Below are positions 4,293-21,421 of a stretch of DNA of 21,471 bases, in pieces. The DNA lies in UHGV virus genome UHGV-0123286. One strand, 5' to 3'. The stretch's first letter is position 1, and each line of letters starts with the position of its first letter. Source of the DNA: a virus. The position numbers and the translations under genes are program-made. The notes beneath the pieces are model-generated. The model saw nothing but the letters and a program-made list of their open reading frames with translations, had not been told where the DNA came from and did not search any database.

Positions 4293-4432
4293 ACGTCCTC
4301 CTTTTCCTGCGGTAGTGGTAACACCCCTGTTGGTGTTCTTTCACACCGGAGACACCATCGACTCCAGCAAGGTTGATTTGGTCGGAAGCGGTTATCTTCT
4401 TTGCATTCACCGCACCGATAACATCGCATCAT
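4259..4432 (-). CDS. ninD: NinD, 57 aa zinc-ribbon protein
   Basis: Manual translation [34 protein letters not shown]...; ATG overlaps ninC stop (ATGA); 57 aa equals lambda orf57. Confidence 0.7.
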
Positions 4433-5301
4433 GCAGCTTCCCTCCCGAAGTCGAAATCAAGCTGCCCTCCAAATATTTCGCATGACTCAGAACAAGAGCC
4501 GGTATCGAATCTTTTAGCTCGTACCATGTCCTGATACAGGGCTTGATAATCATTTTCTGAATACATTTTCGCGATACCGTCCAGCGACATTCTTCCTCGG
4601 TACATAATCTCCTTTGGCGTTTCCCGATGTCCGTCACGCACATGGGATCCCGTGATGACCTCATTAAAAACACGCTGCAATCCCTCCTCATCTTTGCAGG
4701 CAAGTCCGATTTTTTGCGTTGATTTTTTAATGCAGAATATGCAGTTACCGAGATGTTCCGGTATTTGCAAATCGAATGGTTGTTGCTTCCACCATGCGAG
4801 GATATCTTCCTTCTCAAAGTCTGACAGTTCAGCAAGATATCTGATTCCAGGATTTGGCTTTAGCCGCTTCGGTTCATCAGCTCTGATGCCAATCCACGTG
4901 GTGTAATTCCCTCGCCCGAAATGGTCATCACAGTATTTGGTGAAGGGAACGAGTTTTAATCTGTCAGTGCAGAACGCGCCGCCGACGTATGGAGTGCCAT
5001 ATTTCTTTACCATATCGATAAATGGCTTCAGAACAGGCATTTTCGTCTGAATATCCTTTGGTTCCCATACCTTATAACCATTTGACTGTCCAAGCTCTGG
5101 GTTGATATCAACCTGCAATACAGTGAGCGGTATATCCCAGAACTTCACAACTTCGCGGATAAACCGATATGTCATCGGGTGTTCACAACCTGTATCCATG
5201 AAAACGTAATGCACGTCTTCACCTGCCTGTCGCTTTTGCTCCATTAGCCAGAGCAAATATGCTGACGTCCTGCCACCGGAGAAACTAACGACATTTATCA
5301 T
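4429..5301 (-). CDS. ninC: NinC (PAPS-reductase-like fold), 290 aa; start at internal Met of listed ORF
   Basis: From [24 protein letters not shown]... matches lambda orf290; SGGxxS P-loop-like motif. Confidence 0.85.
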
Positions 5302-5738
5302 GCAGCCCTGTCTCCCCATCTCGCTTTCCACTCCAGAGCCAGTCGCGCTTCGTCTGACCACTTAACGCCACGCTCTGTACCGAATGCCTGTATAAGCTCT
5401 AATAACTCCGCAAATTCGCTTACACGCATCCTGCTGGTTGACTGGCCTATTACCACAAAGCCATTCCCGGCAAGGTTAGGAACAACGTCCTGCTGCTTTA
5501 ATGCTGCGGTAAACACACACTTCCAGCTTTCTGCATCCAGCCAGCGACCATGCCATTCGACCTGACGCGAGACGTCACCAAGGCAAGCCCAAAGTTTCCG
5601 ATTTTGGTCTAAGCTGCGGTTGCGTTCCTGAATGGTTACTACGATTGGTTTGGTTGGGTCTGGAAGGATTTGCTGTACTGCGTGAATAGCGTTTTGCTGA
5701 TGTGCTGGAGATCGAATTTCAAAGGTTAGCTTTTTCAT
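5298..5738 (-). CDS. ninB: NinB recombination mediator (Orf), 146 aa; start at internal Met
   Basis: From MKKLTFEIRSPAHQQNAIHAVQQILPDPTKPIVVTIQERNRSLDQNRK... matches lambda orf146; GGGAGAGGGAAG RBS. Confidence 0.85.
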   Translation of the reverse strand: MKKLTFEIRSPAHQQNAIHAVQQILPDPTKPIVVTIQERNRSLDQNRKLWACLGDVSRQVEWHGRWLDAESWKCVFTAALKQQDVVPNLAGNGFVVIGQSTSRMRVSEFAELLELIQAFGTERGVKWSDEARLALEWKARWGDRAA

Positions 5739-8876: not shown

Positions 8877-9593
8877 ATGGAAAATAAAAAATCACTGACG
8901 ACAGAACAGCTCGAAGACGCTAAGCGGCTTAAGGCTTTGTATGAGTCAAAAAAGAAAGAATTGGGAATAACCCAATACTCAATCGCTGATGAACTGGGTA
9001 TCACCCAAGGAGCGGTAGGGCATTATCTTAATGGCAGAAACGCGCTAAACGTTGAGGTTGCATCTGGTTTTGCACGATTGTTGCAAGTCTCAATTGCTGA
9101 TTTTAGCCAGTCAATTGCTGCCAAGGTTGCAGAACAGGCAGAAAGCCTTAAGAGCGATGCCAACGTAAGGTATGCAGGGGAATACAGAGCAGGAAAGAGG
9201 TATCCGGTGTTAAGCAGTATCCAGGCTGGCTCGTGGTGTGAAGCATGCGAACCATACACCATTAAAGACATAGATGTTTGGCTTGAGTCTGACGCGCATA
9301 TTCAAGGTAATGCGTTCTGGCTTAAAGTGGAAGGTGATTCAATGACGGCACCGGTTGGGTTAAGCATTCCAGAGGGAACATTCGTTCTTTTCGATACCGG
9401 AAGGGAGGCGATCAACGGCAGCTTGGTCATAGCAAAACTTTCTGACTCTAACGAAGCAACATTCAAGAAGCTGATAATCGACGGCGGAAATAAATACCTC
9501 AAGGGACTTAACCCTGCATGGCCTCTCGTGCCAATCAATGGAAACTGCAAGATTATAGGCGTTGCAATTGAGACAAAACTAAGGCTGGTTTGA
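8877..9593 (+). CDS. cI: CI repressor (HTH N-domain plus S24 LexA-like autocleavage domain), 238 aa
   Basis: Overall alignment to lambda CI (LTQEQLEDARRLKAIYE.., C-terminal FWLEVEGNSMTAP.., FKKLI motifs) with divergent recognition helix. Confidence 0.9.
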   Translation: MENKKSLTTEQLEDAKRLKALYESKKKELGITQYSIADELGITQGAVGHYLNGRNALNVEVASGFARLLQVSIADFSQSIAAKVAEQAESLKSDANVRYAGEYRAGKRYPVLSSIQAGSWCEACEPYTIKDIDVWLESDAHIQGNAFWLKVEGDSMTAPVGLSIPEGTFVLFDTGREAINGSLVIAKLSDSNEATFKKLIIDGGNKYLKGLNPAWPLVPINGNCKIIGVAIETKLRLV

Positions 9594-9610
9594 TCACGCA
9601 AGGGGCGCTT

Positions 9611-9979
9611 ATGGTTGGAACCGCTATAGCAAGCTTTTTTGGGATGTTGGCAATCTCGACAATTTACGGCTTAGCGCATGCTTTTATTGCGAAATCTCTA
9701 TCAGAAAAAATAAGCCAGGCTTGGGCGCATAGATTGGCTCGTTTCATGGTTCTAGTGATCATAGCAATACAAGGGATATCTGCATTTATCCTCTATGGAT
9801 CAAGCTTATACCTATTGTATCAAGGCGCGACATTTACGCCTTACACCAGTGATTACGGAACTCTATACGATGGTAGTGAAGACATCTCAATGGCTTGGAT
9901 CGTCTTTGGTTTATCTATGGCCGTGTCTGTTGTAGCAGACATCATTAAGGTAATTCTCGTCTTAACCTTCGCTGACTAA
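9611..9979 (+). CDS. Small integral membrane protein (3 predicted TM helices), 122 aa, immediately downstream of cI
   Basis: Three hydrophobic stretches (VGTAIASFFGMLAISTIYGLAHAFI; LARFMVLVIIAIQGISAFILYG; MAWIVFGLSMAVSVVADIIKVILVL); same strand as cI, 17 nt after its stop. Confidence 0.5.
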   Translation: MVGTAIASFFGMLAISTIYGLAHAFIAKSLSEKISQAWAHRLARFMVLVIIAIQGISAFILYGSSLYLLYQGATFTPYTSDYGTLYDGSEDISMAWIVFGLSMAVSVVADIIKVILVLTFAD

Positions 9980-10111
9980 CTCATAATCCCGGCAGCAATA
10001 GCTATCGGGATCCACTTCACATATCCCGCATAAAAAGCACTGAACAAGCAGACACCGAAAAAATAAATATCCTTTGTATTCATTTGCTTATCATTATTTC
10101 ACCAAAAATAA

Positions 10112-10152
10112 ATACCTTGGGTATTTACACAATAAAATACCTACAGTATTCT
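10112..10152 (+). promoter_or_regulatory. OL operators (10112..10124 ATACCTTGGGTAT; 10137..10149 ATACCTACAGTAT) with pL (-35 TTTACA 10124..10129, -10 TATTCT 10147..10152)
   Basis: Same 13-bp palindrome family and 25-bp spacing as OR; hexamers 17 bp apart, oriented toward N. Confidence 0.55.
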
Positions 10153-10198
10153 TTAGCCATCAGCAGGACGCTGGAAGCCAAACGGAACAGATTGGCAG

Positions 10199-10239
10199 GC
10201 TCTTTAACATTGATGGGATTGTCCCGCCGAAATGCGGGA
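10199..10239 (+). promoter_or_regulatory. nutL: boxA GCTCTTTAACA (10199..10209) and boxB hairpin TCCCGCCGAAATGCGGGA (10222..10239)
   Basis: boxA consensus followed 12 nt later by an inverted repeat identical to nutR boxB, between pL and N. Confidence 0.65.
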
Positions 10240-10346
10240 ACCAAAGAGTAGTTGGCTTTGGGGTGACGTGAAGTGCAGCTGCACGACGGCAACCGGAAGA
10301 TAAGCACCCGGCGCGTCACCGCCAAAGTCAATCATCGGAGGTCAAC

Positions 10347-10652
10347 ATGACAGTAGTCATTACATACCTGGCTGACGATAACGCCAGAAACCGCCGCAGA
10401 GCACGCAGACAGGCTCAACGTGAACAGGCAATGCAAGAGCAGCGACTGGCGCGAAAAATTGCGCTAAAGCTCTCTGGTTGCGTCAGAGCAGACAAAGCAG
10501 CATCACTCGGAAGCCTTCGCTGCAAGAAGGTAGAAGAAGTCGAGAGTAAACAGAATCGTATTTACTACCGCAAGCCACGCAGTGAAATGGGTGTGACTTG
10601 TGTTGGTCGCCAGAAAATGAAATTAGGCAGCAAACCACTGTATGAGGGGTGA
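10347..10652 (+). CDS. N: N antiterminator, 101 aa
   Basis: Arginine-rich motif NARNRRRARRQAQ near N-terminus; C-terminus RIYYRKPRSEMGVTCVGRQKMK resembles lambda N C-terminus; GGAGG RBS. Confidence 0.85.
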   Translation: MTVVITYLADDNARNRRRARRQAQREQAMQEQRLARKIALKLSGCVRADKAASLGSLRCKKVEEVESKQNRIYYRKPRSEMGVTCVGRQKMKLGSKPLYEG

Positions 10653-10655
10653 TCT

Positions 10656-10907
10656 ATGGAATTTCATGAAAGTGCGATTTATGATTTTCGCGCTAACGCA
10701 AATTCAGTAAAACCACAGCCAATTGCAGTACTTTTTAAAACAATGGGTGCGTGGGCTGTTTTATGCTTCGCCGCTGATGACACTGACGCAAGAATGGCAA
10801 TAGGCCAAGAGATGGAGATGGACCCGACAAACGATGAATTCATAATTTATGGCGCTCCATCTAATTACTTACTTGATACCTGCAACATTTACAACAAGGC
10901 TGCCTGA
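10656..10907 (+). CDS. Hypothetical protein, 83 aa (position of lambda ral)
   Basis: ORF with GAGGGG RBS directly after N; no family recognised. Confidence 0.45.
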   Translation: MEFHESAIYDFRANANSVKPQPIAVLFKTMGAWAVLCFAADDTDARMAIGQEMEMDPTNDEFIIYGAPSNYLLDTCNIYNKAA

Positions 10908-10934
10908 TGGTGGCCTTTATTTTTAAGGTGCTAT

Positions 10935-11177
10935 ATGAAAATTAAAACCATGGGCGCAAGCCCATTAAGCGGTCGTATTTTTCAAGGAACATTAAACACT
11001 GAAAAAGGAATGTGGGTAGGAAAGAAAGAAGATGTCACCGAACAGGCAGTTAAGGCAGTAGCTGAACACCTGATGATAAAAAACCAGAAATACGCATACG
11101 AAACGAAGGATGGCAAATGGCTGATAATAAGCCATCAAGTGGTTGATAAATTACCAGAAGATTTTATTGCTGATTAA
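10935..11177 (+). CDS. Hypothetical protein, 80 aa
   Basis: ORF with AAGGTG RBS; no family recognised. Confidence 0.45.
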   Translation: MKIKTMGASPLSGRIFQGTLNTEKGMWVGKKEDVTEQAVKAVAEHLMIKNQKYAYETKDGKWLIISHQVVDKLPEDFIAD

Positions 11178-11305
11178 ATTCACTTTGGAACAAACAACAG
11201 AATAAACACTGCACTGTGTATTCATTCCAACGAGTGAATACACGGAGCAATGTCGCTCGTAACTAAACAGGAGCCGACTTGTTCTGATTATTGGAAATCT
11301 TCTTT

Positions 11306-11332
11306 GCCCTCCAGTGTGAGGGCGATTTTTTT
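11306..11332 (+). terminator. Intrinsic terminator inside the pL operon (tL-like)
   Basis: GCCCTC-CAGTGT-GAGGGC hairpin followed by GATTTTTTT. Confidence 0.5.
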
Positions 11333-11343
11333 GACGGAGGAAA

Positions 11344-11656
11344 TATGAAATTACGTGTCTGGCATATCCCGCAAGTACCTATGAAACCGTTCATTGTAGA
11401 AGTGGCAAGTGTTGAAGAGGGTGTTCGCCTGATGGATGCACTGGCTGATTATGACGCCTTTCAGTATGACAACAACATCAAGCCTGACTACTGCAATGCT
11501 AACGGCCTTGAGATGTGGGATGAGAGCCTTACCGATGAAGATTTATCAGAGATGGGGCTTACTGATCGCTGGGTGGATTGGTACAGCGAATGCCAATGTT
11601 ACGACGACCCACGTAAATATCTCGAAAGCCTGAAAGAAGAAACATCAGCCGCCTAA
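11344..11656 (+). CDS. Hypothetical acidic protein, 103 aa (start at internal ATG with GGAGGA RBS)
   Basis: ATG 11344 preceded by GACGGAGGAAAT; translation MKLRVWHIPQVPMKPFIVEV...; no family recognised. Confidence 0.5.
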
Positions 11657-11731
11657 GCGCGGCTTTACCGCATACCAATAACGCTTCACTCGAGGCGTTT
11701 TCGTTATGCAATCAAATATAAGGAGTTACCC

Positions 11732-11866
11732 ATGATGCACTTTCAGCTCGCGGGTAGCGGCGTCATGTCCGCTTTCTACCCGCACGAATCTGAATTATCA
11801 CGCCGAGTTAAACAATTAATCAGAGCAGCAAAGAAACAACTGGAGGCGTTATGCGCAATGAAATAG
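11732..11866 (+). CDS. cIII: CIII-like protein (FtsH inhibitor), 44 aa
   Basis: Manual translation MMHFQLAGSGVMSAFYPHESELSRRVKQLIRAAKKQLEALCAMK; resembles lambda CIII central region; AGGAG RBS; below ORF-track threshold. Confidence 0.55.
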   Translation: MMHFQLAGSGVMSAFYPHESELSRRVKQLIRAAKKQLEALCAMK

Positions 11867-12003
11867 CCATTAATCACCAGATGCTTCGTGCTGCACAAAA
11901 CAAAGCAGTAATAGCCAGATTTATTGGTGATTCCAAAATGTGGCTTGAAGCAAATAAAGCGATGAAATCAGCTATCAACCTTCCGTGGTATCGCAGGAAA
12001 TGA
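11851..12003 (+). CDS. kil: Kil-like protein, 50 aa
   Basis: Manual translation MRNEIAINHQMLRAAQNKAVIARFIGDSKMWLEANKAMK...; IARFIGDSKMW resembles remembered lambda Kil IATFIGDEKMF; GGAGG RBS; overlaps cIII stop. Confidence 0.45.
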   Translation: MRNEIAINHQMLRAAQNKAVIARFIGDSKMWLEANKAMKSAINLPWYRRK

Positions 12004-12170
12004 GTTTTACAGATAACTGGTCAGACGAAGAATTCATTCGTCAGATGAAAGATTTAATCGGTAACGAAGGAGATATTCATGTCACTTGCAACCACAGTGA
12101 AGGAGAGCAAGTTACAGAGACGCATGTACACGCAGCAGGCGTTAATGTATCGCCAGAAGGGAGATCGTGA
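12000..12170 (+). CDS. Small ORF, 56 aa, translationally coupled to kil (ATGA); overlaps an alternative-frame ORF
   Basis: Start overlaps kil stop; no homolog recognised. Confidence 0.3.
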   Translation: MSFTDNWSDEEFIRQMKDLIGNEGDIHVTCNHSEGEQVTETHVHAAGVNVSPEGRS

Positions 12171-12249
12171 AGGTGTTCGCGTATTTTTAAATGCGGCAAA
12201 GACTGAAGTATTAAATCAGCGTTATTTCCTTGGGCCGTGTCCATTCTGA
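12079..12249 (+). CDS. Small ORF, 56 aa, with strong RBS (AAGGAG, 7-nt spacer); overlaps previous ORF in another frame
   Basis: MSLATTVKESKLQRRMYTQQALMYRQKGDREGVRVFLNAAK...; at most one of the two overlapping ORFs is likely real. Confidence 0.3.
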   Translation: MSLATTVKESKLQRRMYTQQALMYRQKGDREGVRVFLNAAKTEVLNQRYFLGPCPF

Positions 12250-12259
12250 GAACAATCAT

Positions 12260-12865
12260 ATGAGCAAAGAATTTTACGCAAGACTGGCAGCTATTCAGGA
12301 GAATCTGAACGCGCCAAAGAATCAGTACAACTCATTCGGCAAATATAAATACAGAAGCTGCGAAGATATTCTTGAAGGCGTTAAGCCGTTACTGAATGGT
12401 CTGTTTTTATCAATCAGCGATGAAGTTGTGTTGATTGGTGATCGGTATTACGTGAAAGCAACGGCAACTATTACCGATGGCGAAAACAGTCATACGGCAA
12501 CCGCACTAGCACGAGAGGAAGAAAGCAAGAAAGGAATGGATTCTGCACAAGTTACGGGAGCTACAAGCTCTTATGCACGCAAGTATTGCCTCAATGGTTT
12601 GTTCGGCATTGATGATGCGAAAGATGCAGATACAGACGAGCATAAACATCAGCAGAACGCAGCAGCAAAGCAATCAAAACCATCACCTACACCTGAACAG
12701 GTTCTAAAAGCATTCACTGACGCAGCATTGCAGAAAAACACCGTGGAAGAGCTTAAACAGGCGTTCGCCAAAGCGTGGAAGATGCTCGAAGGCACACCGG
12801 AGCAGCACAAAGCGCAGGACGTTTACAACATCAGACGAGACGAATTAGAAGGAGCTGCTGCTTAA
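12260..12865 (+). CDS. erf: Erf single-strand annealing recombinase (P22 Erf family), 201 aa
   Basis: From MSKEFYARLAAIQENLNAPKNQYNSFGKYKYRSCEDILEGVKPLL... matches remembered P22 Erf. Confidence 0.85.
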   Translation: MSKEFYARLAAIQENLNAPKNQYNSFGKYKYRSCEDILEGVKPLLNGLFLSISDEVVLIGDRYYVKATATITDGENSHTATALAREEESKKGMDSAQVTGATSSYARKYCLNGLFGIDDAKDADTDEHKHQQNAAAKQSKPSPTPEQVLKAFTDAALQKNTVEELKQAFAKAWKMLEGTPEQHKAQDVYNIRRDELEGAAA

Positions 12866-13248
12866 TGGCACATTCGATTACTGTAAGACTAAACAAGCCC
12901 GCAAGAGAGTTTCAGGCCGGGGAAAATATCGGATTCAACATCCGTGCTGGCGTTCAGTATTACGATCGCCAGACAAAAAAGAAAGAATGGACAAACTACA
13001 GCGCCGTTGTATTTGCCAAGCCGGGAGCGCAAGCGGATTACTACCGTAGTGTTCTTGTTGAAGGTGGCATTGTAGAAATTACCGGAGAAAACATCAGGGT
13101 TGATGTTTATCAGGGGCAAAATGGTCAATCAATCACTCTTGAATTACTGAATGCAAAGATTGGATTTGCAACTTCAGGAAACAGCCAACAGCAGCAAAGT
13201 AGCAATCATCAAAATCATCCTGAATACGACGATTCAATTCCCTTCTAA
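12865..13248 (+). CDS. SSB-like single-stranded DNA-binding protein, 127 aa
   Basis: C-terminal acidic tail ...EYDDSIPF (bacterial SSB ends DDDIPF); OB-fold-like core EWTNYSAVVFAK...VLVEGGIVEITG; ATG overlaps erf stop (TAATG). Confidence 0.65.
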   Translation: MAHSITVRLNKPAREFQAGENIGFNIRAGVQYYDRQTKKKEWTNYSAVVFAKPGAQADYYRSVLVEGGIVEITGENIRVDVYQGQNGQSITLELLNAKIGFATSGNSQQQQSSNHQNHPEYDDSIPF

Positions 13249-13271
13249 AGTAGCAACATAAGGATTCCATT

Positions 13272-13568
13272 ATGCCAGCGCCTCTGTATGGTGCGGACGA
13301 CGCGCGCCGCTGTTCCGGCAATTCCGTATCGGAGGTGCTGGATAAATTCAGGAAAAACTACAACCGGATAATGTCGCTACCGCAGGAAACGAAAGAGGAA
13401 AAGGAATTTCGCCATTGTATATGGCTTGCAGAGAAAGAAGAACGCGAGCGAATTTACCAGACATCAATCCGACCATTCCGCAAAGCCACATATACCCACT
13501 TCCCTGAATATATCGACCCGCGCCTGCGTAATTACCGCTCACGCTATGGCGCTATCAGTAATGACTGA
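13272..13568 (+). CDS. Hypothetical protein, 98 aa; possibly Abc2-like anti-RecBCD protein (by position after erf, unverified)
   Basis: ORF with AAGGA RBS; assignment rests on P22 gene order and an uncertain recollection of Abc2. Confidence 0.4.
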   Translation: MPAPLYGADDARRCSGNSVSEVLDKFRKNYNRIMSLPQETKEEKEFRHCIWLAEKEERERIYQTSIRPFRKATYTHFPEYIDPRLRNYRSRYGAISND

Positions 13569-13578
13569 GGAATTAACA

Positions 13579-13869
13579 ATGAAAACAATGAAGCTAAACA
13601 TCGACCTCGGAAAATACGTTATTACCGGAACCAAACACGATCTGATTCTAAGCGAAAGAGGAATTATCAAAGAAGGTGAGAATGCAGGGAAAGAAACACT
13701 AAGTCGTATCGGTTATTACAGCAAGTTTGAGCATCTGGTTAAAGAGTTATGCAACCGTGAAATCCTGTTATCTCAGGCGCAGACGCTACAGGATATTCAG
13801 CAGCATATCGAGACTTTAGGTGTGTCACTTAGCATGGCTATTGACCAGTTCGTGGAGAGTAAATCATGA
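13579..13869 (+). CDS. Hypothetical protein, 96 aa
   Basis: ATG 13579 with GAGGA RBS 7 nt upstream; [28 protein letters not shown]... Confidence 0.45.
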
Positions 13870-14030
13870 GAGGACTTGCTTACAATCCCGGCATTCTTCA
13901 GGCAGAAATGATTATTCGCCAACGCGTAAAGCCAATGCCATCGAGAGAGGAATTACTTAAGAGAAATTCTTTTCCATCAGTGAATCAAAACAAATATCTG
14001 AATGCAATGTGGCGGAGTGGGAAGAAATGA
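13866..14030 (+). CDS. Small hypothetical protein, 54 aa
   Basis: ATG overlaps upstream stop (ATGA); manual translation [36 protein letters not shown]... Confidence 0.35.
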
Positions 14031-14425
14031 AACAAATGTCACTAATTGAGATGGATGGTTTTCTGAAAGGTAAATGCATCCCACGAGATTTAAAGGTTAA
14101 CGAAACAAACGCTGAATATCTGGTGCGTAAATTTGCTGAAGCGGAGGCCAAGTGCGCGGCGCTGGCAGCGGAGAATGCGGCGCTTAAACAGTCGGAGAAG
14201 GAATTTAATAACTTCTGTCGTCAGGAGCACTACGGTTGGGAGGACAACTTCACGGAAACCCCAGCCACCGATGCTTTCCTGGCTGAAATTGAACGCAAAG
14301 CAATCCGCAAGTTCATTAACAGCATTGAACACATCCTGCGTGACAAGTTGTCACCGTATGACACCGAAGAGATGCTTGAGGCTATGCGTATTTTTCTGGA
14401 AGAACAGGGAGGTGAGCAAAAATGA
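14027..14425 (+). CDS. Hypothetical protein, 132 aa (coiled-coil-like)
   Basis: ATG overlaps upstream stop (ATGA); [55 protein letters not shown]... Confidence 0.45.
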
Positions 14426-14727
14426 CAATCACAAAACAACGGGTAGAAGAAATCATATCCCGCATTGAAATGTATGGACATGGTGCAGGGTATACCGCAG
14501 ACGAGGTTAATGACCTGGCTGTACTGGCGCTGAATTTATCAAATATCGCAAACCTGAAGCGATACGAGCTTGATATGGATGGTTGTGACTCGTGCGGTCA
14601 GGATTGTGGCGCTGACATGACTGAAGATTCTGATGGCGATTATGTCCTGTTTGATGACGTGGTTAAGTTGTTTGAGCTTGATACATTCGAAAGCCCAGCA
14701 AAGGAGGCAACCAGTGAGCGAAATTAA
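14422..14727 (+). CDS. Hypothetical acidic protein, 101 aa
   Basis: ATG overlaps upstream stop (ATGA); acidic Cys-containing C-terminal half DMDGCDSCGQDCGADMTEDSDGDYVLFDD. Confidence 0.45.
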   Translation: MTITKQRVEEIISRIEMYGHGAGYTADEVNDLAVLALNLSNIANLKRYELDMDGCDSCGQDCGADMTEDSDGDYVLFDDVVKLFELDTFESPAKEATSERN

Positions 14728-15496
14728 TTACCAGGCACTGCGTGAGGCGGCGCAACTGGCAACACAGGGTGAATGGGTCGCATTTATTTCGTCTGGTACT
14801 GGTACATATGCGGTGCATACACCTGGTGATAAACGATGTGAAGACGTTATCAAATGGACCGGCTTTGATGGACAGAAAAATGCAGAGAACAACGCTCGTT
14901 ATATCGCAGCTTTCAACCCAGAAGTAGTGCAGGCGTTGCTGGACGAGCTGGAAGGCAAAGACAAACTGATTGCCGAGCTTGGAAAACAATGCGCCGAATG
15001 GGAGCGAAAAGCATTAAGTAACTTTGAAGAGTGTGCTGCGATGGCTGAACGTATCGAAGAGATGCAGACAAAATCTGCACCAGATTCGTTTGGCATCATC
15101 GGTGAAAATATTCGAACACAGGATAATCGAATAACATCAGACCCTATGTTTTGTGTGTATCAAAAGCGCGAAATCGTTGTTGATGCTGATTATGACTATG
15201 ACCGGATTGTCTGGGTTGATGAAGATGGCAATGAAGCCAATAAACGCCAAAGTCGTCGTCTCGAACTACTTCATGAAAACTTTCGGGAGCCACCAGAAAA
15301 ATGGCGGCGCGTTGCTGTGAAAGATATTGATGAATTCGTGACCTGCTGTTTCACCGAGCAGGGTTGTAAAGACTACCTGGCAGCCAATGGTCACAATCTT
15401 CGCTTGCCATTTATATATGTAAAAAGCGGTTTCAGGAACGCTGAATATATCGGCATAAGAAACTGGCTTGCTGGCATTCGCATCAAAGGAGAATGA
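14714..15496 (+). CDS. Hypothetical protein, about 260 aa (GTG start after AAGGAGG); possibly Ead/Ea22-like early-region family
   Basis: Strong RBS AAGGAGG 6 nt before GTG 14714; family assignment from memory only. Confidence 0.45.
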   Translation: MSEINYQALREAAQLATQGEWVAFISSGTGTYAVHTPGDKRCEDVIKWTGFDGQKNAENNARYIAAFNPEVVQALLDELEGKDKLIAELGKQCAEWERKALSNFEECAAMAERIEEMQTKSAPDSFGIIGENIRTQDNRITSDPMFCVYQKREIVVDADYDYDRIVWVDEDGNEANKRQSRRLELLHENFREPPEKWRRVAVKDIDEFVTCCFTEQGCKDYLAANGHNLRLPFIYVKSGFRNAEYIGIRNWLAGIRIKGE

Positions 15497-15497
15497 G

Positions 15498-16013
15498 ATG
15501 GCGTTAACACACCGCGAACTCTGTCAGATTGCCTACAGGTTCCTTAAGCGCAACGGGTTCAAGGTTTGCTTTCATGACCGCTTTGTTGCTGTAACCAGTA
15601 CTGGAGAACAACCAGATGCTATGGGATTCAGAAATTCAGCATCATGCCTGATAGAGGCGAAGTGTTCTCGTGCTGACTTGTTGGCAGATAGAAAAAAGCG
15701 TTTCCGTAAAAATCCCTCTCTTGGCATGGGGGACTGGCGATTCTTTATTAGTGAGCCGGGAATTATTTCAATTGAGGATTTACCACCTGGCTGGGGATTA
15801 CTTCACGTTGTTAACGGAAGAGTACGGAAAGTACATGGGTGGCCAAAGGGCAATTGCTGTTGGGGTAATCCTGACGATAAGCCATTTACTGGAAATAAGC
15901 AGGTTGAATGCGATTACATGTTATCGGCATTAAGGCGCATGGAGTTGAGAGGGCACCTTAATGAAATATATGACGGTGTAATTGTTAATAAGAAAGAAGG
16001 AAACGCGGCATGA
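15498..16013 (+). CDS. Putative PD-(D/E)xK-fold nuclease-like protein, 171 aa
   Basis: Motif ...GEQPDAMGFRNSASCLIEAKCS... (PD ... ExK spacing typical of restriction-endonuclease-like fold); AAGGAGAA RBS. Confidence 0.45.
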   Translation: MALTHRELCQIAYRFLKRNGFKVCFHDRFVAVTSTGEQPDAMGFRNSASCLIEAKCSRADLLADRKKRFRKNPSLGMGDWRFFISEPGIISIEDLPPGWGLLHVVNGRVRKVHGWPKGNCCWGNPDDKPFTGNKQVECDYMLSALRRMELRGHLNEIYDGVIVNKKEGNAA

Positions 16014-16690
16014 TCACTATTACCAAAGAGCGACTACTGACAATCAAGCAGTGGCGCGAAACATACGGACCTGGTAGCAACGTTGTGCTTCCAGCAGAAG
16101 AAGCGGAAGAGCTGGCACGGATTGCACTGGCATCACTGGCAGTAGTATCGGATGAACGAGCAGCCTATGAATTATTTATGGAGAAGCGTTTCGGGGAATC
16201 TGTAGATCGCCGTAGGGCAAAAAATGGCGATAGAGAATACATGGCATGGGATATGGCGCTTGGCTGGATTATCTGGTGTCACCGCGCCGCCATGCTTCAG
16301 GGTAGCCAACCTGTAAGCCAAACTTACAAGTTGCCAGTTAATACACCTTGCCAAGATGCGCCAGCCCATATCTGGCTACAAACGGCTGGAGTATGGCCAG
16401 AAGATGGCGAGTTAAGCGAATTAACGTGGTGCAGCCACAATCAGCACCATGATGACACGCTATATGTTCGAGCTGACCTTGTGAATGGCAACTATCCGGT
16501 AACTCCGGATAGTTGGATAAGCTGTAGTGAGCGAATGCCGAACGACGCGCAGTGGTGCGTAGTGAACACAGAATACGGGTATTACGCGCAATGCTGGTCT
16601 GAAGGTCAAGGGTGGCTTGGTGATGATATCAGCATCCCTGAATGCGATGTAATCAATTGGATGCCACTACCAGAACCGCCGCAGGGGTGA
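16010..16690 (+). CDS. Hypothetical protein with DUF551-like C-terminal domain, 226 aa
   Basis: ATG overlaps upstream stop (ATGA); C-terminus WISCSERMPNDAQWCVVNTEYGYYAQCWSEGQGWLGDD...WMPLPEPP resembles DUF551 of lambdoid early regions. Confidence 0.5.
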   Translation: MITITKERLLTIKQWRETYGPGSNVVLPAEEAEELARIALASLAVVSDERAAYELFMEKRFGESVDRRRAKNGDREYMAWDMALGWIIWCHRAAMLQGSQPVSQTYKLPVNTPCQDAPAHIWLQTAGVWPEDGELSELTWCSHNQHHDDTLYVRADLVNGNYPVTPDSWISCSERMPNDAQWCVVNTEYGYYAQCWSEGQGWLGDDISIPECDVINWMPLPEPPQG

Positions 16691-16756
16691 AATGATGCTT
16701 GGCCTGAAGTATTTTATGTAATTGGTATTGCTATATTTTTATCTGGGGATAAACGA

Positions 16757-16999
16757 ATGTTCTCTCTGATTCAACGTGGTCAGATATACACCGATAGCGC
16801 TGGCTATCCAGTAAAAATCATTCGTAGTACTGATCACTCAGTATTCTTCAAGAGGATGGATGGCTATCCTGGAAGAGTGTGCATCAGAAAATTCAATAAT
16901 TTATTCGAACACATTGATCACAGAGAATATCACCAGATCCTGGCTGAAACAGAACAGGAGAACCATCTGAAAAAATTACGTGCTATGCAAAGGAGATAA
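16757..16999 (+). CDS. Hypothetical protein, 80 aa
   Basis: ORF with GGGGATAAACGA upstream; no family recognised with confidence. Confidence 0.4.
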   Translation: MFSLIQRGQIYTDSAGYPVKIIRSTDHSVFFKRMDGYPGRVCIRKFNNLFEHIDHREYHQILAETEQENHLKKLRAMQRR

Positions 17000-17079
17000 A
17001 CCGGTAAAGGTGTTCGCGATAAAGGTGAATATCGGCAATGAATAACAATCCTCGAACTCGCGGGGATTTCTTTTATCTG

Positions 17080-17105
17080 AACTCGCTACGGCGAGTTTTG
17101 TTTTA
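17080..17105 (+). terminator. Intrinsic terminator
   Basis: AACTCGC-TACG-GCGAGTT hairpin followed by TTGTTTT. Confidence 0.5.
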
Positions 17106-17117
17106 TGGAGATGATAA

Positions 17118-17285
17118 ATGCACTTCCGAGTCACAGGTGAATGGAATGGAGAGCCATTCGACAGGGTTATCGAAGCAGAGGACATCAACGACTGCTATAA
17201 CCACTGGATGATATGGGCGCAGATAGCGCATGCAGACGTAACCAATATTCGAATTGAAGAACTGAAAGAACACCAAGCCGCCTGA
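17118..17285 (+). CDS. Small hypothetical protein, 55 aa, flanked by two terminators
   Basis: ATG with GGAG 8 nt upstream; MHFRVTGEWNGEPFDRVIEAEDINDCYNHWMIWAQIAHADVTNIRIEELKEHQAA. Confidence 0.4.
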   Translation: MHFRVTGEWNGEPFDRVIEAEDINDCYNHWMIWAQIAHADVTNIRIEELKEHQAA

Positions 17286-17300
17286 TGGCGGTTTTTTCTT
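17277..17300 (+). terminator. Intrinsic terminator upstream of xis
   Basis: CCGCC-TGAT-GGCGG hairpin followed by TTTTTTCTT; stop codon of the 55-aa ORF lies in the loop. Confidence 0.55.
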
Positions 17301-17324
17301 GCGTGTAATTGCGGAGACTTTGCG

Positions 17325-17543
17325 ATGTACTTAACACTTCAGGAGTGGAACGCACGCCAGCGGCGCCCAAGAAGCCTTGAAACAGTTCGTCGATGGGTAC
17401 GCGAGTGCAGGATATTCCCTCCTCCGGTTAAGGATGGAAGAGAGTATCTGTTCCACGAATCAGCGGTAAAGGTTGACTTAAATCGACCAGTAACAGGTAG
17501 CCTTTTGAAGAGGATCAGAAATGGGAAGAAGGCGAAGTCATGA
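17325..17543 (+). CDS. xis: Excisionase Xis, 72 aa
   Basis: Translation MYLTLQEWNARQRRPRSLETVRRWVRECRIFPPPVKDGREYLFHESAVKVDLNRP... is essentially identical to lambda Xis. Confidence 0.95.
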   Translation: MYLTLQEWNARQRRPRSLETVRRWVRECRIFPPPVKDGREYLFHESAVKVDLNRPVTGSLLKRIRNGKKAKS

Positions 17544-18594
17544 GCGCCGGGATTTACCTCCTAACCTTTATATAAGAAACAATGGATATTACTGCTACAG
17601 GGACCCAAGGACGGGTAAAGAGTTTGGATTAGGCCGAGACAGGAGGATAGCAATCACTGAAGCTATACAGGCCAACATTGAGTTACTCTCAGACAGCGGA
17701 CGCAAATCACTGATAGACAGAATTAAAGGCGGTGACGCAATCACTCTTCATGTGTGGCTTGACCGATATGAAAGAATCCTCACCGAAAGGGGGATCAGGC
17801 CGAAAACTCTACTCGACTACGCCAGCAAAATCAGGGCAATCCGAAGAAAATTGCCGGACAAACCGCTCACTGACATATCAACGAAAGAAGTGGCAGCAAT
17901 GCTAAACACCTACGTAGCAGAAGGTAAAGCAGCTTCCGCAAAATTAATCAGGTCAACCCTTGTTGACGTTTTTCGTGAAGCAATAGCCGAGGGGCATGTG
18001 GCAACGAATCCGGTAACAGCAACCCGTACAGCAAAGTCAGAAGTAAGGCGCTCAAGGCTGACAGCTAATGAGTATGTCGAGATTTACCATGCAGCCGAAC
18101 CTCTCCCTATCTGGCTAAGGCTGGCGATGGATTTGGCCGTCGTTACAGGGCAGAGAGTCGGCGATTTGTGCAGAATGAAATGGTCAGACATAAACGACAA
18201 CCATCTTCACATTGAACAGAGTAAAACAGGGGCTAAACTCGCCATTCCGCTAATGCTAACGATTGACGCGCTCAATATCTCATTGGCTGATACACTACAG
18301 AAATGCAGGGATGCCAGCAGCAGTGAAACTATAATCGCATCAAAGCATCACGATCCGCTTTCCCCGAAAACAGTATCAAAGTATTTTACAAAGGCGAGAA
18401 ATGCATCTGGACTCTCATTTGATGGAAACCCGCCAACATTCCATGAACTGCGTAGCCTGTCAGCGAGGCTATACCGGAACCAGATTGGCGATAAGTTTGC
18501 TCAACGTCTTCTCGGGCATAAATCAGATTCAATGGCGGCGCGGTATAGGGACAGCCGTGGACGGGAATGGGACAAAATTGAAATCGACAAATGA
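17521..18594 (+). CDS. int: Tyrosine integrase (lambda/HK022 Int family), 357 aa
   Basis: Translation MGRRRSHERRDLPPNLYIRNNGYYCYRDPRTGKEFGLGRDRRIAITEAIQANIEL... near-identical to lambda Int N-terminus; catalytic region HELRSLSARLY...HKSD..AARY; start overlaps xis. Confidence 0.95.
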   Translation: MGRRRSHERRDLPPNLYIRNNGYYCYRDPRTGKEFGLGRDRRIAITEAIQANIELLSDSGRKSLIDRIKGGDAITLHVWLDRYERILTERGIRPKTLLDYASKIRAIRRKLPDKPLTDISTKEVAAMLNTYVAEGKAASAKLIRSTLVDVFREAIAEGHVATNPVTATRTAKSEVRRSRLTANEYVEIYHAAEPLPIWLRLAMDLAVVTGQRVGDLCRMKWSDINDNHLHIEQSKTGAKLAIPLMLTIDALNISLADTLQKCRDASSSETIIASKHHDPLSPKTVSKYFTKARNASGLSFDGNPPTFHELRSLSARLYRNQIGDKFAQRLLGHKSDSMAARYRDSRGREWDKIEIDK

Positions 18595-18688
18595 TTTTAT
18601 TTTGACTAATAATGACCTGCTTACATTAATTCATTGATAATAAAAGAGATTTCAAATATACAACTTATTCACCTAAAGTGCACCGACC
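18595..18688. other. attL: P' arm with arm-type Int sites (18596..18620) and candidate core/overlap region (about 18661..18685)
   Basis: Minus-strand reads CAGGTCATTAT-TAGTCAAAAT-AAAATCATT, close to lambda P'1-P'3 arm sites; core candidate GCACTTTAGGTGAATAAG resembles the HK022-type core as I recall it. Confidence 0.6.
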
Positions 18689-21421
18689 GTGAATTTAACC
18701 CTGACCCGAAGACTCTGGATGGGCTTTGCCCTGATGGCGCTGTTAACCCTGACCAGTACCCTGGTGGGATGGTACAACCTGCGCTTTATCAGCCAGGTGG
18801 AAAAAGACAACACTCAGGCATTGATTCCTACCATGAATATGGCGCGCCAGTTGAGCGAAGCCAGCGCCTGGGAACTTTTCGCCGCGCAGAACCTGACCAG
18901 TGCCGATAACGAAAAGATGTGGCAGGCGCAGGGGCGAATGCTCACCGCACAAAGCCTGAAGATTAATGCGTTGCTGCAAGCGTTACGGGAACAAGGTTTT
19001 GACACCACCGCTATTGAACAACAGGAGCAGGAGATCTCCCGTTCGTTACGTCAGCAAGGGGAACTGGTGGGGCAGCGTTTGCAACTTCGCCAGCAACAAC
19101 AGCAACTCAGTCAGCAGATAGTCGCCGCCGCCGATGAAATCGCACGCCTGGCGCAAGGTCAGGCGAATAATGCGGCAACCTCCGCCGGAGCGACCCAGGC
19201 CGGGATTTACGATTTGATCGAACAACATCAGCGTCAAGCCGCAGAAAGTGCACTCGATCGGCTGATTGATATCGATCTTGAGTATGTTAACCAGATGAAT
19301 GAACTGCGCCTTAGCGCCCTGCGGGTGCAGCAAATGGTGATGAATCTGGGGCTGGAACAGATCCAGAAAAATGCGCCAACGCTGGAAAAGCAGCTCAATA
19401 ATGCGGTGAAAATTCTGCAACGTCGGCAAATACGCATTGAAGATCCGGGTGTTCGTACTCAGGTAGCAACAACGTTAACTACCGTTAGCCAATATAGCGA
19501 TTTGCTGGCGCTGTATCAGCAGGACAGTGAAATCAGCAATCACCTGCAAACTCTCGCCCAAAATAACATCGCCCAATTCGCGCAGTTTAGTAGCGAAGTC
19601 AGTCAGCTGGTCGACACCATTGAGCTGCGTAATCAGCACGGGCTGGCACATCTGGAAAAAGCCAGTGCACGCGGGCAATACAGCCTGTTATTGCTGGGAT
19701 TAGTTTCTCTTTGCGCACTGATTCTGATCCTCTGGCGCGTGGTTTATCGCTCAGTCACGCGCCCTCTTGCAGAACAAACGCAGGCGCTGCAACGCTTGCT
19801 GGATGGTGATATCGACTCCCCTTTCCCGGAAACCGCTGGCGTACGGGAACTGGATACCATCGGGCGGCTGATGGATGCGTTTCGCAGCAGTGTTCATGCA
19901 CTGAATCGCCACCGCGAACAGCTGGCGGCGCAGGTCAAAGCGCGTACAGCTGAATTGCAGGAACTGGTGATAGAACACCGACAGGCACGGGCGGAAGCAG
20001 AAAAAGCCAGCCAGGCAAAATCGGCGTTTCTGGCGGCGATGAGCCATGAGATCCGCACACCGCTGTACGGTATTCTCGGCACCGCACAGCTGCTGGCAGA
20101 TAACCCCGCACTTAACGCCCAGCGCGATGATTTGCGGGCGATTACCGACTCTGGTGAATCGTTGCTGACCATCCTCAACGATATTCTCGATTATTCGGCT
20201 ATCGAAGCAGGCGGCAAGAATGTTTCGGTCAGCGATGAACCCTTTGAACCGCGCCCGCTGCTGGAAAGTACCCTGCAATTAATGAACGGAAGGGTGAAAG
20301 GTCGCCCGATTCGCCTGGCAACAGAAATTGCCGACGATGTACCGACTGCGTTAATGGGCGATCCGCGGCGTATTCGTCAGGTCATTACCAACCTGTTGAG
20401 CAACGCCCTGCGTTTCACCGACGAAGGGCACATTATTCTGCGTAGTCGCACTGATGGCGAACAATGGCTGGTCGAAGTGGAAGACAGCGGCTGCGGTATT
20501 GATCCCGCGAAACTGGCTGAAATCTTCCAGCCATTTGTTCAGGTTAGCGGCAAACGCGGCGGCACCGGGCTGGGGCTGACTATCAGTAGCCGTCTGGCCC
20601 AGGCGATGGGCGGCGAATTGAGCGCCACCAGCACGCCGGAGGTTGGAAGCTGTTTTTGTTTACGCGTGCCGTTACGTGTTGCCACTGCACCCGTGCCAAA
20701 AACAGTCAATCAGGCGGTGCGTCTGGACGGTTTACGTTTGCTGTTAATTGAAGATAACCCGCTAACCCAGCGGATTACCGTTGAGATGTTGAACAGCAGT
20801 GGGGCGCAGGTCGTTGCCGTAGGAAATGCCGCGCAGGCTTTAGAGACACTGCAAAATAGTGAACCGTTTGCTGCCGCACTGGTGGATTTTGATCTACCGG
20901 ATATCGACGGCATTACGCTTGCCCGACAACTGGCACAGCAATATCCGTCGCTGGTTTTGATTGGCTTTAGCGCCCATGTCATTGACGAAACACTGCGACA
21001 GCGTACCAGTTCGCTATTTCGCGGGATTATCCCTAAACCGGTGCCGCGTGAAGTGCTCGGTCAATTACTGGCGCACTATCTCCAACTGCAAGTCAATAAC
21101 GATCAACCACTGGATGTATCGCAACTCAATGAAGATGCTCATTTAATGGGGGCGGAGAAGATCCACGAATGGCTGATATTATTTAAACAACATGCCCTGC
21201 CGCTTCTCGATGAAATCGACATTGCCCGCGCCAGTCAGGATAACGAGAAAATAAAGCGTGCCGCACATCAGCTAAAAAGCAGTTGCTCGAGTCTGGGAAT
21301 GCGTAGCGCCAGCCAGCAATGCGCACAACTGGAGCAGCAGCCATTATCTGCCCCCCTTCCACACGAAGAAATTACACGCAGTGTTGCCGCTCTGGAAGCA
21401 TGGTTAATAAGAAAGACCTGA
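18689..21421 (+). CDS. torS: Hybrid sensor histidine kinase TorS (TMAO respiration two-component system), 910 aa
   Basis: Translation [41 protein letters not shown]... with H-box SHEIRTP, receiver domain and C-terminal HPt matches E. coli TorS; GTG start. Confidence 0.95.

Follow-up and report, generated by a model that had tools for sequence, protein, structure and literature searches.

The effect of this kind of attachment junction on torS is already known, and it was explained experimentally in 2019 for phage HK022 (eLife 8:e49081). Carey et al. 2019 (eLife 8:e49081) reported that HK022 integration parts torS from the IscR site and from its native promoters; for the HK022 attL in K-12 they cited Yagil et al. 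1989. In an HK022 lysogen of MG1655, torS-lacZ expression was elevated and torT-lacZ expression was unchanged, and torS transcription was abolished when an Omega terminator was inserted at attL following ...ACAACTTA (position 18667 in the numbering used below) (eLife 8:e49081). The elevated torS expression was driven by a promoter inside the HK022 prophage end; in vitro, with RNA polymerase alone, a fragment beginning 231 bp 5' of the torS ATG gave a single prophage-internal start (eLife 8:e49081). In the HK022 lysogen TorS in excess of TorT silences aerobic torCAD expression and ends bet-hedging on sudden O2 loss, and overexpression of torT brings the aerobic torCAD expression back (eLife 8:e49081). 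The natural lysogen NRG 857C showed the same behaviour as the HK022 lysogen, and the authors cautioned that prophages at HK022 attB need not all act alike (eLife 8:e49081). Later literature made the same point for prophage Gally of LF82, and the two native promoters, P1torS and P2torS, have been defined in detail (PMC13644379).

The window analysed here is the whole stretch of 21,471 nucleotides from virus genome UHGV-0123286. It covers the early-region half of a mosaic lambdoid prophage, starting in the lysis genes, with attR and torT lying beyond it. The prophage genes included endolysin, holin, late antiterminator Q, the nin region, DnaB-like and O-like replication genes, cII, a cI-type repressor, an N-like antiterminator, a gp17-type exclusion protein, Erf, SSB, Ea22-like genes, xis and int. 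None of the complete E. coli genomes covered at least 80% of the window, and the prophage is therefore considered its own mosaic of phage modules. Judged from sequence, the region next to torS is the attL of a lambdoid prophage carrying an HK022 int/xis/att module, inserted at HK022 attB in the torS–torT intergenic region. The window is one more natural instance of the junction, in a different mosaic prophage.

The crossover was placed by three-way alignment of the window, HK022 attP and K-12 attB, which revealed an HK022-type attL (B-O-P') directly 5' of torS. The 21-bp core GCACTTTAGGTGAATAAGTTG occurred on the minus strand at 18661–18681, as a single copy in the window with 0 mismatches, and was absent from 100 shuffles with 3 mismatches tolerated. 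It is an exact hybrid composed of the C' half of HK022 attP, the overlap AGGTGAA and the B half of K-12 attB. According to the 7-7-7 core layout and the wild-type attB sequence in PMC5512741, the core is divided, on the minus strand, into the C' core-type Int site TAAGTTG (18661–18667, phage-derived), the 7-bp overlap O AGGTGAA where strands are exchanged (18668–18674) and the B core-type Int site GCACTTT (18675–18681, host-derived), the two Int sites being assigned by alignment and core search. The overlap lies inside TTCACCTAAAG (18668–18678), an 11-bp identity common to attP and attB; to the left of it the window is phage-like, and on its right side the window matches K-12 attB and torS exactly. 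The host flank was likewise identical to the torS side of the unoccupied torS–torT attB in comparison with K-12 and with prophage-free genomes, in which the match to the window begins at 18661. The 18-mer that the initial annotation had put forward as a minus-strand core near torS, GCACTTTAGGTGAATAAG, is the reverse complement of 18664–18681 and lies within this core. Its reading of the DNA 5' of torS as phage-derived was borne out, since phage sequence extends leftwards from 18667 in the three-way alignment.

From the int stop to the overlap region there are 73 bp of phage P' arm (18595–18667), equal to the spacing given for HK022 (eLife 8:e49081). On the other side, the K-12 torS–torT intergenic region is 82 bp long and attB ends 7 bp 5' of the torS GTG; only 14–21 bp of host DNA are left 5' of this annotated start in the window. 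The GTG (18689–18691, plus strand) opens a 910-codon ORF. In published translational lacZ fusions, however, β-galactosidase was produced only from an ATG 30 nt downstream and the GTG was inactive (eLife 8:e49081); by the ORF and these fusions, the torS coding sequence is 18719–21421 (plus strand). The core had been proposed to lie about 5–20 bp upstream of the start codon, which is right for the annotated GTG (7 bp from the core end at 18681) but not for the functional ATG (37 bp). For annotation, torS in such lysogens should start at the ATG (18719) rather than at the GTG.

The int gene (17521–18594 including the stop codon, plus strand) encodes a 357-aa HK022-type tyrosine integrase as judged by ORF and protein comparison, and the stop at 18594 is as first annotated. 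The xis gene for the excisionase (17325–17543, plus strand, 72 aa) overlaps the int start. Positions 17300–18700 showed 95.9% nucleotide identity with the HK022 xis-int-attP region, in which excisionase and integrase are annotated, and the Int protein shared 96% of its amino acids with HK022 Int and 75% with lambda Int. The six catalytic residues (R212, K235, H308, R311, H333 and Y342) were all conserved. D99, P282, K283, K287 and R319 are the HK022 residues, unlike those of lambda. These five Int positions (99, 282, 283, 287 and 319) were reportedly found by Dorgai et al. in 1995 to distinguish the core specificity of HK022 from that of lambda.

Between int and the core we found predicted arm-type sites and a predicted H' site at positions homologous to those of lambda and HK022, in agreement with the P' arm sites noticed at first reading. 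By alignment to lambda attP, the three predicted Int arm-type sites on the minus strand are P'3 (18589–18598), P'2 (18599–18608) and P'1 (18609–18618), with names and limits that we take from the lambda map. The lambda record carries the Int binding site "int 4" at 27814–27854, adjoining the int stop. The predicted IHF H' site TATCAATGAATTA (18627–18639, minus strand) fully matches the consensus WATCAANNNNTTR and is homologous to lambda H' in the alignment; the window contained two matches to this consensus versus 1.15 expected, so the motif is weak in itself and counts only by its homologous position. We also observed that the differences from HK022 at 18632 and 18634 change H' from TATCAGTAAATTA to TATCAATGAATTA, giving the full IHF consensus match, and that this consensus form is common to most natural prophages at HK022 attB. 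A scan with Rfam found no match anywhere in the window.

The layout is shared with lambda attL, which also has int pointing outward, three P' arm-type sites, H' and C'-O-B, and in lambda the tI/sib region remains at the opposite prophage end. In contrast, the lambda core and attB locus are different, no host promoter is displaced at lambda attB, and lambda is weaker at two promoter-like sites (TCAAAT and GATAGT, versus TCGACA and AATAAT in the window).

The native torS promoters were mapped through the legend of Figure 1B in PMC13644379, of which the 118-bp sequence runs from the torT ATG to the torS ATG and fits exactly positions 1445–1562 of the K-12 sequence used here (L001). P1torS starts at L001 1485, with the IscR site farther toward torT; P2torS starts at L001 1527, equal to 18686 in the window, and has its -35 TTGCGA at L001 1493–1498. 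P1torS and the IscR site both lie beyond attB, toward torT, and are cut off from torS in the window. Alignment to HK022 attP and to the K-12 torS–torT region revealed that the torS promoter is not preserved on the host side; only the P2 -10 TAAAGT (18674–18679, plus strand) and the start sites G/A (18685–18686) remain, and the P2 -35 is replaced by phage DNA. In the published attL variants the B arm of attB was polymorphic among natural hosts, being TTTAGGTG or TTAAGGTG at 18675–18677; on the torS strand this polymorphism changes the P2torS -10 from TAAAGT to TTAAGT, and the window has the K-12 form.

As the -10 and start sites are retained on the host side of the crossover, torS might be transcribed from a hybrid P2 in which TAAAGT is joined, over a 17-bp spacer, to a chance phage -35 TTCAAA (18651–18656). 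This hexamer has 4/6 matches to the consensus, equal to native TTGCGA. However, the hybrid reaches only 8/12 matches and falls under the threshold of the promoter scan, and HK022 lysogen DNA gave no TSS2 (P2torS) transcript in vitro (eLife 8:e49081), though the TTTAAA of HK022 at this place is equally good. Moreover, in the non-lysogen P2 gave about 3-fold fewer in vitro transcripts than P1 (PMC13644379), so that it could not account for elevated torS expression. We regard the hybrid promoter as very improbable.

A promoter inside the prophage end fits better with the published data. The published primers and fragment bound the prophage start, TSS_HK022, to the equivalent of 18488–18667 in the window. 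Over the fragment 18488–18746 (-231 to +28 of the torS ATG), the window was identical to the reconstructed HK022/K-12 lysogen attL at 254 of 259 positions (98.1%). The five differences are at 18619, 18632, 18634, 18642 and 18653, none of them in the hexamers of either candidate promoter described below; located between the candidate promoters and the core, they could alter promoter strength or IHF binding.

The authors found no clearly identifiable -10 or -35 at the HK022 prophage start (eLife 8:e49081). In the window two candidate sigma-70 promoters were found on the plus strand. Candidate promoter 1 (TCGACA-18 bp-AATAAT, 18584–18613) has 10/12 matches and a predicted start at about 18620; it extends over the final codons of int and arm sites P'3 to P'1, is identical in HK022, and was the top promoter-like site in 9500–18700 (9.2 kb), a region in which seven such sites were found versus 15.7 expected from shuffles. 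Candidate promoter 2 (ATGACC-18 bp-GATAAT, 18612–18641) has 9/12 matches and a predicted start at about 18648. Its -10 overlaps the H' site, and its hexamers are the same as in HK022, while this -10 differs among natural prophages (GATAGT, GATAAC).

From the supplement of eLife 8:e49081 we drew 17 distinct natural attL variants, across which positions 18580–18618 were near-invariant, including the hexamers of candidate promoter 1, and 18619–18656 were variable. This conservation fits the authors' remark of high conservation upstream of the prophage start site (eLife 8:e49081), and it mildly favours the first candidate over the second. We rejected hexamer conservation as decisive proof of a promoter, because the same bases also encode Int and make up its arm-type sites, and would be conserved in any case. 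The supplement sequences also carry one extra T in the run that follows the int stop, relative to the HK022 genome record, which we took as an artefact of extraction or alignment. On the sequence features above, candidate promoter 1 may be the published TSS_HK022 promoter.

The initial annotation had further held that int transcription is directed into torS, and the arrangement agrees with it: int and torS are in the same orientation and 94 bp apart, and a scan of 18300–18800 found no terminator-like site between them. Read-through of int transcripts that begin at pI, or at a leaky or antiterminated pL, could be imagined as the main source of torS mRNA in the lysogen in place of a dedicated P'-arm promoter, and the published Omega insertion at attL, which blocks read-through and a local promoter alike, does not discriminate between them in vivo. 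As an N-like antiterminator is encoded, pL transcripts would be expected to cross attL after induction. The escape synthesis of gal in lambda is an analogue of such pL transcripts. In a stable lysogen, however, both routes should be off. Several plus-strand terminator-like sites were found between the pL region and xis, among them a hairpin with a T run 5' of xis (17275–17294; stem of 8 pairs, 5 of them G-C, with a T-rich tail), which would stop non-antiterminated pL transcripts ahead of xis and int. The motif TTGC-N6-TTGC (17299–17312, plus strand), read directly from the sequence, is of CII type and sits where lambda has the pI promoter; its putative CII function is assigned from lambda pI, and int transcription is accordingly predicted to depend on CII. 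The published in vitro start also came from a fragment far downstream of pI (eLife 8:e49081). Because these in vitro data place a separate promoter within about 200 bp 5' of torS, int read-through is not needed, and we consider it improbable as the main source.

Taken with the published experiments, it is highly probable that the attL junction displaces the native promoters, that a sigma-70 promoter in the prophage end drives torS, and that torCAD is silent in air. Integration shifts the IscR operator and P1torS, the main promoter, to the opposite prophage end, and the minor P2torS loses its -35. Then torS would be read from a sigma-70 promoter in the int 3' end and P' arm, without regulation by conditions and at a higher level than its native promoters provide, the expression being constitutive. 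Because torS would be phage-driven while torT would remain under IscR repression, TorS would exceed TorT under aerobic conditions, and TorS without TorT would act as a TorR phosphatase. Expression of torCAD would be off in air, with anaerobic induction retained. That integration alters torS expression, or that torS depends on a promoter in the att region, had been suggested from the sequence of the window; both have been demonstrated for HK022 and NRG 857C (eLife 8:e49081).

The present prophage would presumably act like HK022 and NRG 857C on torS and torCAD. It has in common with HK022 the C'-O-B core, the 73-bp spacing, the 7 bp to the GTG, and the close identity of Int (96%) and of the promoter-bearing fragment (98.1%). 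It differs by the five P'-arm substitutions, by its N-like antiterminator and Erf/SSB recombination module, and by its immunity region. We counted against the likeness the N-type antitermination and Erf module in the rest of the prophage, and an altered torS C-terminus. Compared with strain 165 (over 21400–21421), torS in the window lacks 1 nt near 21405 and has a substitution beside this deletion; the two change the last eight residues HKKDLNAI to IRKT and give 910 instead of 914 aa. The junction might then be without consequence in this strain, torS being defective through the frameshift; in SCU-485, the closest matching lysogen genome, torS is likewise annotated as frameshifted. But only the extreme C-terminus is altered and the ORF stays open for 910 codons, and the change may be either a genuine allele or an error of sequencing. 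We give a defective torS only a very slight chance, and retain torS driven from the prophage end as the preferred reading.

For this reading the significance is that a prophage, through its integration site, gives a host sensor kinase a different promoter and turns off the bet-hedging of TMAO respiration, as established for HK022 and one natural lysogen. In annotation, torS in such lysogens should be considered phage-driven and freed from IscR control. We might further speculate, while thinking it rather unlikely, that the outward torS promoter overlaps P'1 to P'3 and lies just 5' of H', in which case torS transcription and the assembly of the excisive intasome at attL would affect each other. 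Binding of Int, Xis or IHF there could then repress torS, and constitutive transcription across attL could modulate the frequency of excision; P'-arm variants, such as the consensus H' here, could set the TorS level and the aerobic TMAO strategy of each lysogen.

The int-P'-core-torS junction was found in 194–195 of 5,426 complete E. coli genomes (3.6%), which agrees with the published frequency of "roughly 5%". The exact P'-arm variant of the window (18600–18760) was found in only four complete E. coli genomes. Over xis-int-attL (17300–18700), the Stx1a-converting phage Stx1a_11KH263 and H19J showed 98.1–98.6% identity. Natural prophages at HK022 attB, namely Gally of LF82, that of NRG 857C and the Stx1a phages of O26/O103, have the int/att module and junction as in the window.

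Several other genes were observed in the prophage. Two plus-strand ORFs without known function separate the Ea22-like gene from xis: 15468–16013 (181 aa, PHROG 9263/631) and 16010–16690 (226 aa, DUF551 at its C-terminus). This region is mosaic in comparison with strain 165, with similarity only from 16482 on. Positions 4429–5361 on the minus strand, flanked by NinB and NinG in the nin region, encode a 310-aa protein that carries a PAPS-reductase domain (Pfam E-value 5.5e-9), and a metallophosphatase (2277–2942) adjoins NinG. A 129-codon ORF (9590–9979, plus strand) starts within the stop of the cI-type repressor gene (8877–9593) in the same orientation, at the position of lambda rexAB; it had no Pfam match and matched only PHROG 6534 (unknown function), and it may be a moron expressed in lysogeny.
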